From Thermodesulfobacteriota bacterium (GTDB taxonomy: Bacteria > Desulfobacterota_D > UBA1144 > Nemesobacterales > Nemesobacteraceae): a DNA stretch of 64,000 nucleotides. A program made the translations under genes and the position numbers. Shown here one piece after another: positions 20,585 through 45,969 of this stretch. The DNA lies in assembly GCA_965202785.1 (NCBI GenBank), contig OZ241855.1, forward strand, positions 736,001 to 800,000, in the 5' to 3' direction. Each line of letters starts with the position of its first letter. Positions within the stretch are counted from its first letter, which is position 1. The notes under the pieces were generated by a model. The model was not told the DNA's origin, did not search any database, and was given only the letters and a program-made list of their open reading frames with translations.

Positions 20585-21236
20585 GGGAATTACCAAGTTA
20601 AGCCGGTAATTCCCTTTGTATACACAGAGGAGATGAATAATGAAGAAATTTAGTCTTGTTTTCATGGTTTTTGTTTTAGCGATATTTCTTGCTTGCGATG
20701 ATAACGATAGTGACACTATGGAGATGGAGTCGGAACCGACATCAGTGCCGATGAAAGGGTTTTTCGCCAGCATTGATGAAAACAACATGAACGACTGTCA
20801 AAGTGAAGACCTGACTCTGATGGTGGAAGATGAGTTGGTCATTGGCAGTAGCAACGTTACGGCACTAGGTGCGGGCGAAGCATTTGATGAAGCGGTATTC
20901 GGATATATAGGTATAAAGACGGAAAGCCATATAGCTGCTTCTTATGTAACGTCAACAAGGGAAGGCAGTCTTGTCAATCCCGGCGTTCTTTACCTAAGGA
21001 AGAAAGGGGATATATACGTTGGATTCTGGGGTGGCGAAGCTACACGCCCAGAAGGCAATCCATCCGTTGTTTGTCCTTACATAATGGTTCCGGCAGGTAT
21101 GGCGGAAGAAGATGGTTGTGAAGCGGAAGCGTATTCTGAATATCTCAAGAACGAAGATGGTTTATTAAAGACTTGTACCGCAGCACCAAACAATTAATGC
21201 ACAAAAAGATTTCGTCAACTTAATTTGGTAAGTCCC
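20585..21236. mobile_element. Non-autonomous TIR-bounded cassette (IS1595-like) carrying a lipoprotein gene
   Basis: Left end GGGAATTACCAAGTTAAG; right end GTCAACTTAATTTGGTAAGTCCC (reverse complement GGGACTTACCAAATTAAGTTGAC); flanks AAACATTG and AAACATTT form a 7/8 direct repeat. Confidence 0.7.
20640..21197 (+). CDS. Hypothetical lipoprotein
   Basis: Lipobox FLA-C19, acidic mature domain, visibly more AT-rich than neighbouring genes; family not recognised. Confidence 0.75.
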   Translation: MKKFSLVFMVFVLAIFLACDDNDSDTMEMESEPTSVPMKGFFASIDENNMNDCQSEDLTLMVEDELVIGSSNVTALGAGEAFDEAVFGYIGIKTESHIAASYVTSTREGSLVNPGVLYLRKKGDIYVGFWGGEATRPEGNPSVVCPYIMVPAGMAEEDGCEAEAYSEYLKNEDGLLKTCTAAPNN

Positions 21237-27809: not shown

Positions 27810-28754
27810 CTAGTAACTTTCCCCGAGCCCGTTTTTAGCCACGTAGCACGCTCCAAGCACCCCTGAGTCGTCTCCCAGAGCGGCTCTCTTTATCTGAAGT
27901 CCCCTCTCCATTCTCCCAAGACACCTTGTTTCGGCTTCCTCAAGCGTTTTCCCGATAAAAAGTTCCCATGCGCCTGAGAGCCCCCCGCCCACGACCACCG
28001 TTTTTACATCGAGAATGTTTACGAGAATTGATATTCCCACCCCCAAATTCGCCCCGAAGTCGTTCCATACCGATATGGCTGCTTGGTCTTTTTCGCGCGC
28101 GAGTTCCGCTAGGCTCTCGGGGAGGGCTGATTCTTCGGTTCCAGCAAGCCTTTCGCGGAGTTGCGGGTCCTCGCGGACGATTCTCCTTATCGCTACCTGC
28201 GAAACATAGGTTTCAATGCAGCCCCTCGCTCCGCAGGCGCAAAGGGGTCCTGACGGGTTAATCGTCATGTGCCCCAACTCTCCGGCGAAGCCGTTTTCCC
28301 CCGACCAGAGCTTGCCGTCGAGGATTATTCCGCCCCCGAATCCGGTTCCCAGGGTTATCATTACCATCGAGTTTGAGCCTCTACCCGCCCCCGCCCGGTA
28401 TTCTCCGAGAGCCGCGCAGGAAGCGTCGTTTTCTATAAAAACGGGGGTTGCGGTTCCGATTTTCTCCGAAAGGACTTCTGTAAACGGGAAATTCTTGGTG
28501 TTTGCTATGTTCGGGGCCTGGACGAGAGTACCGCTTGCGCGGTCAATGGTTCCCGGTATTCCTATCCCGATTGCGGATACCCCTTCCCCGGCTAATCCTT
28601 CTATTAAGCCAGCGAGGTTCTCCATGAGCCGGGAGATACCCATGTGGGCGTCCGAGAGGGTTTTTCTCTCCCCGAGGGTTTCCCCCTCCTCGGAGATAAT
28701 TTTTCCCCTGATGTTGGTCCCCCCTATGTCTATGCCAAGGAATTTCCGCTTCAT
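27810..28754 (-). CDS. ROK-family sugar kinase (glucokinase-like)
   Basis: GIDIGGT, ENDASCAALGE, GTGFGGG, GELGH, CACGARGCIE. Confidence 0.92.
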   Translation of the reverse strand: MKRKFLGIDIGGTNIRGKIISEEGETLGERKTLSDAHMGISRLMENLAGLIEGLAGEGVSAIGIGIPGTIDRASGTLVQAPNIANTKNFPFTEVLSEKIGTATPVFIENDASCAALGEYRAGAGRGSNSMVMITLGTGFGGGIILDGKLWSGENGFAGELGHMTINPSGPLCACGARGCIETYVSQVAIRRIVREDPQLRERLAGTEESALPESLAELAREKDQAAISVWNDFGANLGVGISILVNILDVKTVVVGGGLSGAWELFIGKTLEEAETRCLGRMERGLQIKRAALGDDSGVLGACYVAKNGLGESY

Positions 28755-28981
28755 TTTCCGTTATTAAGCTGTGAAAAACCGTCCAGAAAACTCTATTTTA
28801 CCCTGTCTTTTCAGAAAATATTGACTGCGGTGGCGGATGAAGACACCGGATTTTTGCGCAAGCCGCATGTAACAAGGTATAAATTTATCCTGATTAGCGG
28901 GCGTTTCGCGTCGTGTATTTTTCGGGATTTATGTATTTAAGTTGACGGATTAGATTCAAGCTGTAAACCGGGTATAATGCA

Positions 28982-30178
28982 GTGATGATAAGAACTTACA
29001 AGTGCAGGGTGAAGCTGTCCAAGGCTGGTCATGAACGGTTGACCGAGATATTCGCGATGTCTGCGGAGCTGTACAACGCAGGCTTGGAATCCCGCATTGA
29101 CTGCTACAAAAAGACAGGAGAAAGCCGCAGTCTTTATGACCAGTACAAGGAACTTGTGCAGGTAAGAGCGGAGTTGCCGGAGTTTGAATCTATATCCAAT
29201 ATTGTGTTTCGTGGCGTACTCTCAAGGCTTGACAAGGCGTACAAATCGTTTTTTCGGAGGGTGAAGGCAAAGGAGAAAGCCGGATTCCCCCGTTTCAAGA
29301 GCCGGAAACGCTGGCGAACCATAGAGATAAATGACAGGGCATGGAGTATGCTCAAGCGTGAGGGGAACAAACTGATTCTAAAGGTCAAAGGGTTTCCTCG
29401 GATCGAGGTAAGGCCGTCGAGGGAGCTTCCCCCGAATGCCCTGCTCAAGGCGATTCGGATTACCAGAAAGCCTCTGCGGACGGAAGTGGCGTTATCGTAC
29501 GAATTGGCGACTCCCGAGGCAAAACCATTTACCAGCCCCGTTGGAATAGATATGGGCATATCGAAGCGCCTGACCTTGAGCGATGGGGGAACCGTGGAGA
29601 AGCGGGAGATAGACAGAAAGAAACTGATACGCCTTCAACGCTCCGCATCCCGCAAGGTGAAGGGAAGCAAAAACAGGCGTAAAGCGGTGCGTCTGCTCGC
29701 AAAGGAATGGCAGAGGGTATCGGACGGGGAGAGAGATTATCTTCACCGCCTGACCAGAGAGATAGTCAAGATGTACGACTTCATTGCGGTAGAGAAACTG
29801 AAGACAGAAAACATGCTTCGCGACGGGAATTTAGCAAAGAGTATTTCCGAGCAGACTTGGGGCAGTACCATTACGCTGCTTAACGAGAAGGCCGAGAGTG
29901 CTGGCGTTAAGATGGTGGCAGTGAACCCCGAGGGAACTTCGCAGGAATGTTCTGCCTGCGGAGCAACAGTAAAGAAAGACTTGAGCGTGCGTGTCCATAA
30001 ATGCGACTGTGGTTATGTCGCCGACAGGGACATAAACGCTGCAATTAATATCCTTCATCGAGGTATCTCGATTGCGGGCGGGAATGTTACCCGCATGGTC
30101 GGAAGGATTAAAGAGAAGTCAGAAGTTGTTCTGACTCGGCCAAGAACAGTGTACGAAAGTGTCAACTTAAATACATAA
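28982..30178 (+). CDS. tnpB: TnpB RNA-guided endonuclease
   Basis: GFPRFKS; RuvC-I VGIDMG, RuvC-II IAVEKL, zinc finger TSQECSACG..HKCDCG, RuvC-III DRDINAAINI. Confidence 0.95.
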   Translation: MMIRTYKCRVKLSKAGHERLTEIFAMSAELYNAGLESRIDCYKKTGESRSLYDQYKELVQVRAELPEFESISNIVFRGVLSRLDKAYKSFFRRVKAKEKAGFPRFKSRKRWRTIEINDRAWSMLKREGNKLILKVKGFPRIEVRPSRELPPNALLKAIRITRKPLRTEVALSYELATPEAKPFTSPVGIDMGISKRLTLSDGGTVEKREIDRKKLIRLQRSASRKVKGSKNRRKAVRLLAKEWQRVSDGERDYLHRLTREIVKMYDFIAVEKLKTENMLRDGNLAKSISEQTWGSTITLLNEKAESAGVKMVAVNPEGTSQECSACGATVKKDLSVRVHKCDCGYVADRDINAAINILHRGISIAGGNVTRMVGRIKEKSEVVLTRPRTVYESVNLNT

Positions 30179-30183
30179 TTCCC
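30065..30183 (+). ncRNA. Putative TnpB omega-RNA (scaffold plus possible guide); boundaries approximate
   Basis: Stems TGCGGG/CCCGCA (30073-30095) and TGGTCG/CGGCCA (30096-30142) enclosing AGTCAGAA/TTCTGACT, then GTGTCAA; overlaps the tnpB 3' end as expected. Confidence 0.6.
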
Positions 30184-30188
30184 TTTAG

Positions 30189-31481
30189 ATGAACCAAAGA
30201 ACCGCAGCTGTCCTGTCAGCCGTTTTCCTGCTCTTTTTCTACCTTTCCTGTGAAAGACCCCCGGAGATTCCGAGCCCCGAGTCCATGCGGGAGGTTCCCG
30301 CGTTCCCCGAGATGGACGACGACCTTTTCCCTGAGGGACTGAAGGAATCCATCGGCGCAAGCGTCGAGAAACTTTCGCAGAAAAAGGATTCCCAGCTTGT
30401 TTTCGGACAGAAAACCGTCTCCGCAGGGGACTACGCGCTCGCACTCGGTTATCTTCTCGCCAAGCTTGAAGCGGGCGTTACCAAGGATGATTTCATAAAG
30501 GACGTAAGGGAAAATTTCGATTTCTACGGCTTTCCGGGAAAACCCTGGGGCAAGGTTTTTATAACATCTTACTTTTCTCCGGTGCTTTCCGCTTCCCGAA
30601 CCAGGACACCGCAGCATACCCAGCCGCTATACGGGGTTCCCGCCGACCTGGTGCGCCTGAGGATAGACAGGTTCGTCGAGCGATTCGAGAGATTTTCGTT
30701 TCTTGAGGACGACAAGATCGCCCGGGGAAAGCTTCAGTCCCTTTACGGCAGAGTCGCCTCCGGAGGCCCTGGCAGGACGTCGGAGCTGGTTCCCTATTAT
30801 TCTCGAAGCGAGATAGACTCCGGGGGAAGGCTCAGGGGGAAAAGGCTTGAGATCGCGTGGGTAGACCCTGTTGATGCGTTTTTTCTTCAGGTTCAGGGCT
30901 CGGGTAAAATAAGGTTTGCGGACGGAGAAGAGCGGGTCGTGGGCTACGCCGCCCAGAACGGACACGATTACGTGGCGATAGGGAAATTTCTCTTCGAGTG
31001 GATTCCGAAGGAAAAAATGAGCCTTTGGGCCATAGAAAGCCACCTGAGATCCCTCTCCTACGCGGAGAGGATGAAGATTCTTTACAAAAACCCTAGTTAC
31101 ATTTTCTTCCGCGGACTTGCGGGCAAGCCGGAAACTTCTTTCGGAACGGAAGTCGTCGACGGCAGGACTGTAGCGACCGACAAGGCTTTTTTCCCCAGGG
31201 GGGCGCTGGCGTTCATGGAGTTTGAGAGACCGGTTTTCGAAACTCCCTCTTCAGTTGAGCCGTCGCAGTGGGAACCGGTTTCCCGCTTTGTCGTTAACCA
31301 CGACAGCGGCGGAGCCATAAAAGGGGCCCGGCGCGTCGACCTTTTCTGGGGGGAGGGAAAAGACGCCTCCCGGCACGCGGGTGTGATGAAAAACTGGGGA
31401 AAGTTCTTCTATCTGGTGCCGAAGGGGGAATTCCTGACGGTGCTTAGGGCAAAAAACGGCGGCCAGGGCCAAGGAGGATGA
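30189..31481 (+). CDS. mltA: Membrane-bound lytic murein transglycosylase A
   Basis: Lipobox LSC, ITSYFSP, FFLQVQGSG, NPSYIFF, TVATD, DSGGAIKGARRVDLFWG. Confidence 0.92.
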   Translation: MNQRTAAVLSAVFLLFFYLSCERPPEIPSPESMREVPAFPEMDDDLFPEGLKESIGASVEKLSQKKDSQLVFGQKTVSAGDYALALGYLLAKLEAGVTKDDFIKDVRENFDFYGFPGKPWGKVFITSYFSPVLSASRTRTPQHTQPLYGVPADLVRLRIDRFVERFERFSFLEDDKIARGKLQSLYGRVASGGPGRTSELVPYYSRSEIDSGGRLRGKRLEIAWVDPVDAFFLQVQGSGKIRFADGEERVVGYAAQNGHDYVAIGKFLFEWIPKEKMSLWAIESHLRSLSYAERMKILYKNPSYIFFRGLAGKPETSFGTEVVDGRTVATDKAFFPRGALAFMEFERPVFETPSSVEPSQWEPVSRFVVNHDSGGAIKGARRVDLFWGEGKDASRHAGVMKNWGKFFYLVPKGEFLTVLRAKNGGQGQGG

Positions 31482-44943: not shown

Positions 44944-45969
44944 AGGGAAATTATATACAATAGTCAAGAAAAAACCTGACTTCCCTGCCGAAATCCTTCG
45001 TCCTATACTCTTTTGCGGTGCGAAAGCTGTAACGGTGCGCAACAGGCGAAATCGGTTAGCCTTGTGGTTCAGGTTTTTCCGAGGTGATTAAGGGGTCCGT
45101 GTCCCTTTCCTATCTCCAGAGAATTTCTTATCGCCTCCGTGACAAAGGCTTTCGAATTCTCAAGGGAAGTTGAAAGAGGCATTCCCTTTGCCAAAAAAGC
45201 GCACACGGCCGCCGAAAATGTGCAGCCCGTTCCGTGGGTGTTCTTCGTTTCGATTCTCTCGCTAACCAGTTCTTCAAATATCTCCCCGTCGAAAAAAATA
45301 TCTACCGCCGGGTGTTCTTTCGCAAGATGTCCCCCTTTTACAAGAACCGCCTTCGCTCCAAACGAGAGGATCTTCTCGGCTGCGGTCTTCATATCGCTTA
45401 TGCCGCTTATGCTGACAGAACTCAGTATTTCTGCCTCGGGTATGTTCGGAGTTACTATGAGTGCCCTGGGGAGAATCTCTTTTTTTAGAAGTTCCGTCGA
45501 GTTTTTTAAAAGGGCGGTTCCACCTTTTGAGCTCATCACAGGGTCGACAACGAGCTTCTCAATTGCATACAGGTCTATTTTTTCCGCCACGGCCTCAATG
45601 ATTTTTTCGTTGGAAAGCATCCCGAGCTTAGCGGCGTCGCAGCCTATATCGCTCATCACGGCGTCAAACTGCAGCCCCACGAACTGCTCGGGAAGGTCGT
45701 GGATTGCGCTTACCTCCAGCGTATTCTGGGCGGTAACGGAGGTGAGCACCGAAAGTCCGTACACTCCCAGGGCAGTGAAAGTCTTAAGGTCAGCCTGGAT
45801 TCCTGCCCCTCCTCCTGAATCGGACCCGGCAACGGTAAGCGCTCTTGGGATTTTTTCCGCCACGTAAGGATTCTACAAATTCACCTGTTTTTTACAAACC
45901 CGGACAAGGGCTTACGCCGCGGGTCTTTACTGGAATTGAAAACTGTTTTCAGTTGTATATAATTTCCCT
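44944..45969. repeat. Perfect 17-bp inverted repeat pair enclosing thiD
   Basis: AGGGAAATTATATACAA (44944-44960) and TTGTATATAATTTCCCT (45953-45969). Confidence 0.85.
45069..45863 (-). CDS. thiD: Hydroxymethylpyrimidine/phosphomethylpyrimidine kinase
   Basis: [44 protein letters not shown]. Confidence 0.96.

Follow-up and report, generated by a model that had tools for sequence, protein, structure and literature searches.

A tnpB and omega-RNA cassette with IS1595-type ends in Candidatus Dadabacteria, with a guide probably read from the flanking DNA

We analysed a 64,000-nucleotide stretch of a Thermodesulfobacteriota bacterium (GenBank assembly GCA_965202785.1, contig OZ241855.1, positions 736,001 to 800,000 of the forward strand; hereafter the window, with positions counted from its first letter), which lies in a single-contig genome of 1.64 Mb. 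Within it, a 1260-bp unit at 28924–30183 carries a gene for the RNA-guided nuclease TnpB and its omega-RNA between terminal inverted repeats (TIRs). This unit belongs, as a non-autonomous element, to an ISNwi1-like lineage of IS1595-family transposons in Candidatus Dadabacteria; judged by its closest relatives, its cargo is a tnpB and omega-RNA module descended from an ISDra2-like IS200/IS605 element; and the window copy itself is stranded, with an intact gene and no mobility. We hold the IS1595-end architecture and mobilisation in trans with high confidence, and the whole explanation, in which the stranded cassette also takes its guide from the flank and serves homing, appears probable to us.

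The two repeats, at 28924–28946 (GGGATTTATGTATTTAAGTTGAC) and 30161–30183 on the forward strand, are 23 bp long and identical at 22 of 23 positions. For their outer 18 nt the window has two matches where 0.08 would be expected by chance, a number that none of 100 shuffles reached. The left repeat begins with GGGAnTTAT, an end of IS1595/ISNwi1 type, and its inner edge is TTGAC (28942–28946); the last bases of the right repeat, UUCCC in the RNA (30179–30183), form a proposed pseudoknot strand discussed below. A single long open reading frame (ORF) from the ORF list, 28982–30178, fills the space between the repeats, and the cassette is non-autonomous since it carries no IS1595 DDE transposase gene of its own. 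The frame is open from GTG 28982, and tnpB probably starts at ATG 28985, as the proteins of relatives open with MIRTYKC, which gives a gene at 28985–30178 on the forward strand and an ISDra2-like protein of 397 aa. The ORF matches Pfam OrfB_IS605 (E 2.6e-17) and Cas12f1-like_TNB (E 2.1e-21); the RuvC triad D190/E271/D350 is intact and all four cysteines of a CxxC...CxC zinc finger are present. The original prediction, made from the letters alone, of a tnpB with three RuvC acidic motifs between 23-bp inverted repeats is thus borne out by sequence and profile matches. It had also placed the ORF stop inside the right repeat, where the TAA (30176–30178) indeed lies, 5 nt from the repeat's end.

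The absence of tnpA from the cassette is likewise confirmed. The genome's sole Y1_Tnp match is weak (31 bits) and lies in a single-copy frame of ~290 aa, 140 kb past the window end and unlinked to any cassette. This frame (G000:C1:939596–939856, 27–37 bits across genomes) is single-copy in 35 of 36 genus genomes, and the protein looks domesticated or associated with repetitive extragenic palindromes, not like an IS200 transposase. The further claim that neither end has a subterminal hairpin stood for the left end, which as DNA has no hairpin (fold z 0.36), but not for the right end, where a hairpin is present and partly made of repeat sequence. A TATAAT box resembling a −10 element (28973–28978, forward strand) lies 6 nt upstream of the tnpB start, and GGTATAAT-like boxes are placed likewise in most of 20 related copies. 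The box is a probable internal tnpB promoter, and the mRNA may be leaderless; a strict sigma-70 scan of the forward strand returned no complete −35/−10 pair.

The full 1260 bp, repeats included, recur elsewhere in relatives at 70–83% DNA identity. Among 38 related loci found with the TnpB protein, 36 keep the right end, so that a search for other tnpB copies with the same ends returned homologues with TIRs. Perfect 8-bp direct repeats of AT-rich flank border 20 of these 36, in a count that lets the boundary shift by one base and in which L075 and L076 are one orthologous insertion; L181 is a 21st related copy with a perfect 8-bp duplication. The cassettes fall into three subfamilies that diverge in the inner part of the repeat (TTAAGTTGAC, ATAACTACAC and CAACTAGACAG). 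Intact proteins of at least 370 aa, 70–91% identical to the window protein, are encoded by 34 of 37 copies; D190, E271, D350 and the four cysteines are kept in all 34, and their stop codons all lie 5, 13–14 or 17 nt from the element end. Retention of the catalytic residues in copies as diverged as these argues for a nuclease function under selection.

The same ends also bound transposase genes, as the original prediction had proposed for IS1595 transposases. Of 35 other genus genomes, 30 have PF12762 (DDE_Tnp_IS1595), and elements coding for proteins with PF12762 and the IS1595 zinc ribbon PF12760 (Zn_ribbon_IS1595) have near-identical ends and 8-bp duplications (L041, L051, L124, L128, L164, L172, L179, L180, L182, L183 and L184). 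L041 is 1794 bp long with ends GGGAACTACATATTTAGGTTGAC, L051 and L184 measure 1337–1354 bp, L164 (3283 bp) adds a methyltransferase, the L172 protein combines PF12762 with PF12760, and L124, L128 and L183 share the same end type. L180 (ends GGGAATTATAGCGATAACTAGAC) and L182 (ends GGGAATTATCCCTTTAAGTTGAC) each match a cassette subfamily; ends agree across ~23–26 bp in L041, L172, L180, L182, L183 and others, and every cassette subfamily has a transposase-bearing counterpart with nearly the same ends. Perfect 8-bp duplications also occur in at least 11 transposase-bearing or other-cargo elements. An automatic search for repeats near 28 PF12762 loci told us little in most cases, as the fetched sequences were too short for passenger-carrying elements. 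According to hit coordinates in the genus genomes, no tnpB adjoins a PF12762 match, which implies that the cassettes rely on a transposase in trans: IS1595 DDE transposases coded elsewhere in the genus move them, leaving 8-bp duplications at AT-rich sites.

Duplications of 8 bp are a trait of the ISNwi1 group and the IS1595 family, and GGGAATTAT and GGGATTTAT fit the pattern ggnnatTAT, which we take to be the ISfinder consensus for ISNwi1 ends. The ISNwi1 group of the IS1595 family reportedly includes members with passenger genes. The present lineage presumably resembles that group in its ends (GGGAATTAT), in its 8-bp duplications, in the DDE_Tnp_IS1595 and zinc-ribbon domains of the partner elements and in passengers such as the methyltransferases and lipoproteins of L164, L166, L180 and L183. 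It differs in that the cassette has no transposase and carries as passenger an RNA-guided nuclease, the RNA of which extends into the end bound by the transposase. The passenger-carrying IS1595 elements (L164, L166 (G011), L180 (G051) and L183 (G023)) span 3.3–5.8 kb; their passengers comprise DNA methyltransferases, a possible restriction-modification pair and lipoproteins, and one element is interrupted by an IS30-like gene.

Empty sites define the limits of the mobile unit. With a 3.7-kb query over the locus, both flanks were present in 24 of 24 same-genus genomes and the matches stopped at 28923 and 30184. The distance between the flank matches is 17–55 nt in at least 13 of these genomes, as expected of an empty site. 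Seven of 11 fetched relatives' loci read ...TTTTTC-CTTTAGRGAACCAACAGG-TTTAGATG... at the junction, where the right flank starts as TTTAGATGAACC and repeat sequence is absent. Contigs of three public metagenome runs also join 28923 to 30183/30184 with the same 16–18 letters between, one of these runs possibly deriving from the same source population as the genomes. On the left, homology with the empty sites breaks exactly at 28923/28924, and empty sites without repeat sequence show that the repeats belong to the mobile unit.

These sites also bear on a different origin, in which a palindrome was already present, an ordinary IS605-type tnpB element entered its loop behind TTGAC, and the apparent TIRs are host sequence. 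TTGAC and GTCAA at the inner edges of the repeats are indeed reverse complements, and the joined flanks would form an 18-bp stem with a TTGAC loop. The empty sites, however, hold no part of a repeat and no such pre-existing hairpin (..TTAAG-TTGAC-CTTAA..), 21 copies at unrelated sites have both repeats and 8-bp duplications, and the transposase-bearing L041, L182 and L183 have GTTGAC at both of their own ends. The empty sites lead us to reject a host-palindrome insertion for this copy, and we regard this explanation of the unit as extremely improbable; such an event is possible as the distant origin of the lineage. Together, the TIRs kept by relatives, the palindrome-free empty sites and the transposases between the same ends support the predicted packaging of tnpB and omega-RNA between IS1595-like TIRs.

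At the window copy itself, the left junction (28916–28923, forward strand) has no target duplication: compared with the empty site and the expected duplication, 26 nt are missing, namely CTTTAGRGAACCAACAGG and the left TTTAGATG. Empty sites read ...AACAGG followed by TTTAGATGAACC, and the right flank of the window copy opens with TTTAGATG (30184–30191). On the simplest reading of these junctions, the copy once had a TTTAGATG duplication whose left half was lost together with 18 further bases. The 26-nt loss takes out the AGG ribosome-binding site of the downstream gene, an mltA-like ORF at 30189–31481; with this site gone, the ATG of that gene begins 10 nt past the tnpB TAA (30176). The genome's only trace of PF12762 is a 44-codon remnant with an internal TGA. 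The missing duplication, the left-flank deletion and the lack of a transposase in the genome together indicate that the window copy is stranded.

To place the cargo, we compared the window TnpB with known proteins. Its best natural match in the PDB is ISDra2 TnpB (E 7e-36), with which it shares the catalytic triad and zinc finger (PDB 8bf8, 8exa, 8h1j; Nakagawa et al. 2023, PMC10097598, as far as the available portions of that paper go). TnpBs 36–41% identical to it occur in Nitrospirota, Omnitrophota, Anaerolineae and Deinococcus without the cassette repeats, and in four of them a Y1 tnpA lies just upstream. The right ends of these canonical relatives follow the order GAGAAnC, a hairpin with a TTTA loop, and AGTGTCAA (AGTTGTCAC in Deinococcus); L093–L096 terminate at ...AGTGTCAA, and the sequences of L093, L094 and L095 part directly after GTCAA. 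In L095, L096 and L098 the left end follows TTGAC or TTGAT. This right-end hairpin is missing from the cassette. Compared with these relatives, GTCAA at 30161–30165 (forward strand), now in the loop of the terminal hairpin, is the old IS605-type right-end terminus, and TTGAC at 28942–28946 stands at the position of the old target-adjacent motif (TAM). Since L041, L182 and L183 have GTTGAC at both ends, these bases now double as repeat sequence. The traits of IS200/IS605 elements, namely no TIRs, no duplication and subterminal hairpins at both ends, are not those of the cassette family. Unlike ISDra2, the cassette lacks both a Y1 TnpA and a hairpin at its left end, it is bounded by TIRs, its relatives have duplications, and its terminal hairpin and pseudoknot strand consist of IS1595 repeat sequence.

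An alignment of 34 copies places the omega-RNA scaffold at 30057–30183 on the forward strand (minimum free energy −43.6 kcal/mol, z −2.76). It comprises a helix at 30057–62/30067–72, a stem at 30074–78/30090–94 (stem A) whose loop holds a near-invariant GGGAA (30080–84), a long-range helix at 30096–30101/30137–42, a further stem at 30117–24/30129–36 (stem B) and a terminal hairpin at 30149–53/30172–76, in which GTGTA outside the repeat pairs with TACAT inside it. Over six helices with 30 pairs, 97.3% of cells are paired, a level reached in none of 500 shuffles, and 13 pairs have changed on both sides. The terminal helix has 92.4% of cells paired, and three of its five pairs change on both sides (GC 15, AU 14, GU 3, CG 2; UA 20, GC 10, CG 2; AU 21, UA 2). 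An E-value-mode Rfam scan of 28700–30400 gave no match.

The position of the guide depends on where this scaffold ends. In the ISDra2 omega-RNA, the available portions of the structural work describe a pseudoknot of −6..−2 with −102..−106, stem 1 at −116..−111/−91..−86, stem 2 at −85..−80/−36..−31 and a last-hairpin tetraloop at −20..−17 (PMC10097598). If −1 is set at 30184, the window RNA has UUCCC at −6..−2, GGGAA at −105..−101, stem A at −111..−107/−95..−91, the long-range helix at −89..−84/−48..−43 and the hairpin-loop motif GTCAA at −24..−20. The order is that of ISDra2, as far as the same portions describe it: first stem 1, whose loop holds the pseudoknot partner, then the long-range stem 2 and the terminal hairpin, and last five pseudoknot bases, one spacer base and the guide. 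With −1 at 30165 instead, the ISDra2 elements are unmatched, stem A falling at −92..−72 and the last hairpin being nonexistent. Distances behave similarly: GAGAA lies 33–34 nt from the element end in canonical relatives, and in cassettes AGAAC lies 35–41 nt from the repeat end and only 17–23 nt from GTCAA. Nor is the old terminus kept, as L090 reads GTATGTCAA and two subfamilies have GTGTAG or GTCTAG. The covarying hairpin that reaches into the repeat, the mapping onto ISDra2 and the lost GTCAA terminus together favour a scaffold that includes the TIR, with a guide probably transcribed from the flank. UUCCC (30179–30183) would then pair with GGGAA (30080–84) as the guide-proximal pseudoknot, and the predicted guide template would be the flank at 30184–30203 (forward strand), the start of the mltA-like gene (ATG 30189) with TTTAGATG, the surviving right copy of the presumed duplication.

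The original prediction had weighed this arrangement against another, in which the scaffold ends at GTCAA (30165), the outer 17–18 nt of the right repeat are the guide, and TnpB would target repeat sequence, be it at the left end of its own element or at the ends of other IS1595 elements, to regulate or to cleave there. The anchor of that proposal is sound: canonical relatives do end exactly at GTCAA, within AGTGTCAA, the left repeat has TTGAC where their TAM stands, and GTCAA lies 17–18 nt from the element end in all subfamilies, a normal guide length. The near-perfect match of such a guide to the left end is also real, yet it follows trivially from the inverted repeat. Closer inspection speaks against the use of the TIR as guide, however. 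In both repeats the sequence matching the guide is preceded by GTCAA, a right-end terminus and not a TAM, instead of TTGAC; TTGAC followed by the repeat has no match in the genome, leaving a TIR guide without a TAM-preceded target; the AGTGTCAA terminus itself varies among cassettes as described; the supposed guide bases 30172–76 are tied up in a covarying helix with the scaffold; and the ISDra2 architecture cannot be mapped with a scaffold end at 30165. We therefore consider a TIR-derived guide improbable, and of the two arrangements originally proposed, the flank-derived guide is the better supported.

Several observations weigh against the flank-derived guide and the rebuilt scaffold. The covariation in the terminal hairpin amounts to about four independent sequence versions rather than 34, and both pseudoknot strands are invariant or nearly so, which leaves no covariation test for their pairing. 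Reading by eye, we found no equivalent pseudoknot partner in the canonical L093. Compared with ISDra2, the 3′ strand of the long-range helix in the window copy is displaced by 12 nt away from the end; in copies without a 6-nt insert the displacement is ~6 nt. The sole RNA library consists of contigs, which are unable to show RNA ends or transcription; they cover the empty site and part of a relative's tnpB. The placement of the ends in the ISNwi1 group leans in addition on the 8-bp duplication trait and the end consensus, both of which enter as general background. In the metatranscriptome run X20, a 790-nt contig carries the 3′ part of a relative's tnpB (over window positions 29609–30118) and runs into omega-RNA-like sequence; it may stem from DNA present in the library.

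A further pattern appears beside the insertion sites. All 20 tabulated copies have a G adjoining the duplication on its left, and with L181 the count is 21 of 21. The third base to the left is A in 11 of 20 and the second is T or G in 17 of 20, the first three bases of the duplication are A or T in 19–20 of 20, and at the mirror position on the right C occurs in only 3 of 20. A transposase preference was considered as the cause of the one-sided G and rejected: 13 elements of the same end type, which carry either a transposase or some other cargo, have G on 8 of 26 sides (Fisher's exact test, 4e-7), and the transposase is therefore not the source of the bias. In ISDra2, according to the available portions of PMC10097598, Q80 contacts the A at TAM position −2. 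The aligned column holds Arg in 34 of 34 cassette TnpBs (R77 in the window protein) and Gln in 6 of 6 canonical relatives; K76 and F77 of ISDra2 are not conserved in the cassette proteins either. With a single spacer base after the pseudoknot, as ISDra2 has, the invariant G would be TAM −2. We tentatively propose an ISDra2-like TnpB in an IS1595 shell in which the repeat supplies the pseudoknot and the last hairpin, the guide starts at the second base of the duplication, and the change from Gln to Arg lets a single G suffice.

The proposed mechanism would run as follows. The 3′ module of the omega-RNA would have been rebuilt, the old TnpA-type hairpin being lost and a new hairpin (30149–53/30172–76) using the right repeat, whose UUCCC would pair with GGGAA. 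The guide, read from the flank, would consist of the duplicated target and the following bases. TnpB would cut an unoccupied allele bearing a short, G-containing TAM just left of the 8-bp target, and recombination with the occupied copy would restore the element, as in the restorative homing of IS605 elements, here serving a cut-and-paste transposon. A G-type TAM and homing are the part of this scheme that we advance with the most reserve. Many insertions separate a co-oriented gene's ribosome-binding site from its start codon, or directly follow that codon, and the invariant G may therefore be the last base of GG or NTG at translation starts. The window site is of the first type, with AACAGG followed by TTTAGATG and the ATG of ORF 30189–31481; insertions directly after the start codon are L075/L076, L079 and L081, where an in-frame ATG is provided by the repeat, 15 nt before it ends. 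A TAM of G alone would be unusually weak for a TnpB, and cut-and-paste excision already leaves a break, so that homing would be of little benefit to DDE elements (2026 review, PMC13565253, in its available portions). Insertions of the translation-start type in our collection include window 30176–30191, L061, L065, L075, L076, L078, L079 and L081, and two subfamilies have the repeat with an ATG in the reading frame of the host gene.

These insertion sites allow a reading without homing, in which tnpB and its RNA are mere cargo, kept for some other reason or slowly decaying, and the G reflects the survival of insertions at translation starts. One such reason might be that an ORF reaching to 5–17 nt from the element end lets the downstream host gene be translated by coupling. 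The placement of the stop at 5, 13–14 or 17 nt from the end in 34 of 34 intact copies fits this idea, as do the predominance of insertions between co-oriented genes among the 20, the four or more insertions directly after a start codon with an in-frame ATG in the repeat (L075, L076, L079, L081), and the window copy, whose TAA (30176) lies 10 nt ahead of the next gene's ATG where the AGG site was lost. Against it stand the catalytic residues, intact in 34 of 34 copies that are only 70–91% identical, the fixation of Arg at the TAM-reading position in the same 34, and the occurrence of the G where no start codon or ribosome-binding site is evident (L055, L056, L060, L074 and L082). We judge the cargo explanation unlikely.

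The IS1595 shell is not confined to this cassette. As originally noted, the same TIR consensus bounds a second cassette in the window (20585–21236, no strand assigned), with ends that fit GGGAnTTAnnnnnTTAAG[TTGAC], a 185-aa lipoprotein-like ORF (20640–21197) without a Pfam match, and a left end that is a collapsed 30-bp TIR–TIR stub. The stub (20585–20614) reads GGGAATTACCAAGTTAAG-CC-GGTAATTCCC, like the outer 18 nt of a left repeat fused to the last 10 nt of a right repeat, as in a collapsed element. The place taken by the second cassette lies downstream of mnmE, and there G010 (L041) and G011 (L168) have a complete IS1595 element. Three further IS1595-like end pairs in the genome (G000:C1:265712–266931, 269759–271899 and window 44946–45967) have small unannotated ORFs as cargo; one has a TATTCTTA duplication, and the one in the window, which surrounds a fragment of a thiD-like gene, may be immobile. 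A second, unrelated family of ~410-aa TnpBs (OrfB_IS605 and TNB) sits in the same type of IS1595 shell with 8-bp duplications in L171 (G010:C17), L175 (G042) and L178 (G051), with left flanks GATGG, GATGA and GATGA, and is 28% identical to this genome's second tnpB (G000:C1:1452090–1452947). The motif GGGAATTAT itself occurs 34–69 times per genome against 3–7 for a reversed control (G011, G021, G023, G048, G051, G010, G042). At none of the 33 sites in G021 outside known cassettes was a partner repeat found within 5 kb (best 17/26). On these motif counts and pairings, most GGGAATTAT motifs are not transposon ends, and the lone ones may be promoter-like TATAATTCCC.

The presence of a TnpB in a DDE transposon is of an already published kind. 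The available portions of Altae-Tran et al. 2023 PNAS (PMC10691335) describe six DDE-associated TnpB branches (DDE-1 to DDE-6) with inverted terminal repeats, and solo TnpBs whose ends also occur on transposase-bearing elements and for which mobilisation in trans is presumed. Our cassettes resemble these systems in having a TnpB within an inverted-repeat DDE transposon, a tnpB 3′ end near the transposon end and a solo TnpB with shared ends. In the portions consulted, PMC10691335 names IS630 and the 2026 review (PMC13565253) lists ISL2, IS630 and IS1031; IS1595 is named in neither, and the same portions do not describe a rebuilt omega-RNA 3′ module, a one-sided G or a change from Q80 to Arg. 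A full-text literature search for TnpB with IS1595 listed, to judge from its results, no paper on this architecture, and a search for ISNwi1 returned nothing on the insertion-sequence group by title or abstract. What is added here is the guide location, the RNA rebuild and the candidate TAM change. A parallel exists in Fanzor1, which, in the available portions of Bao and Jurka 2013 (PMC3627910), is found in eukaryotic transposons with TIRs and target-site duplications: there too a TnpB-family nuclease is the sole ORF of a non-autonomous element, and DDE transposons have the same ends, in one case together with 8-bp duplications. Unlike Fanzor1, the cassette is prokaryotic, its TnpB is a compact 397-aa protein and its partner is IS1595; neither Merlin nor IS1595 occurs in the text of PMC3627910 at hand.

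The service of TnpB to its transposon is understood only for the scarless IS605 and IS607 elements, and the rare DDE associations are treated as unexplained, with unclear benefit, in the available portions of PMC13565253. In the cassette family, over 35 diverged and mostly intact copies are available along with empty sites and partner transposases, and definite predictions follow: a guide that begins in the flank, a TAM consisting of a G beside the target, and recognition of that G by Arg77. If these are true, RNA-guided restorative homing would serve a loosely targeting cut-and-paste DDE transposon, which would explain the G in every surviving copy. The family would then show an RNA-guided nuclease re-tuning its RNA and its TAM upon changing its host transposon, and would supply a compact TnpB with a very relaxed TAM.

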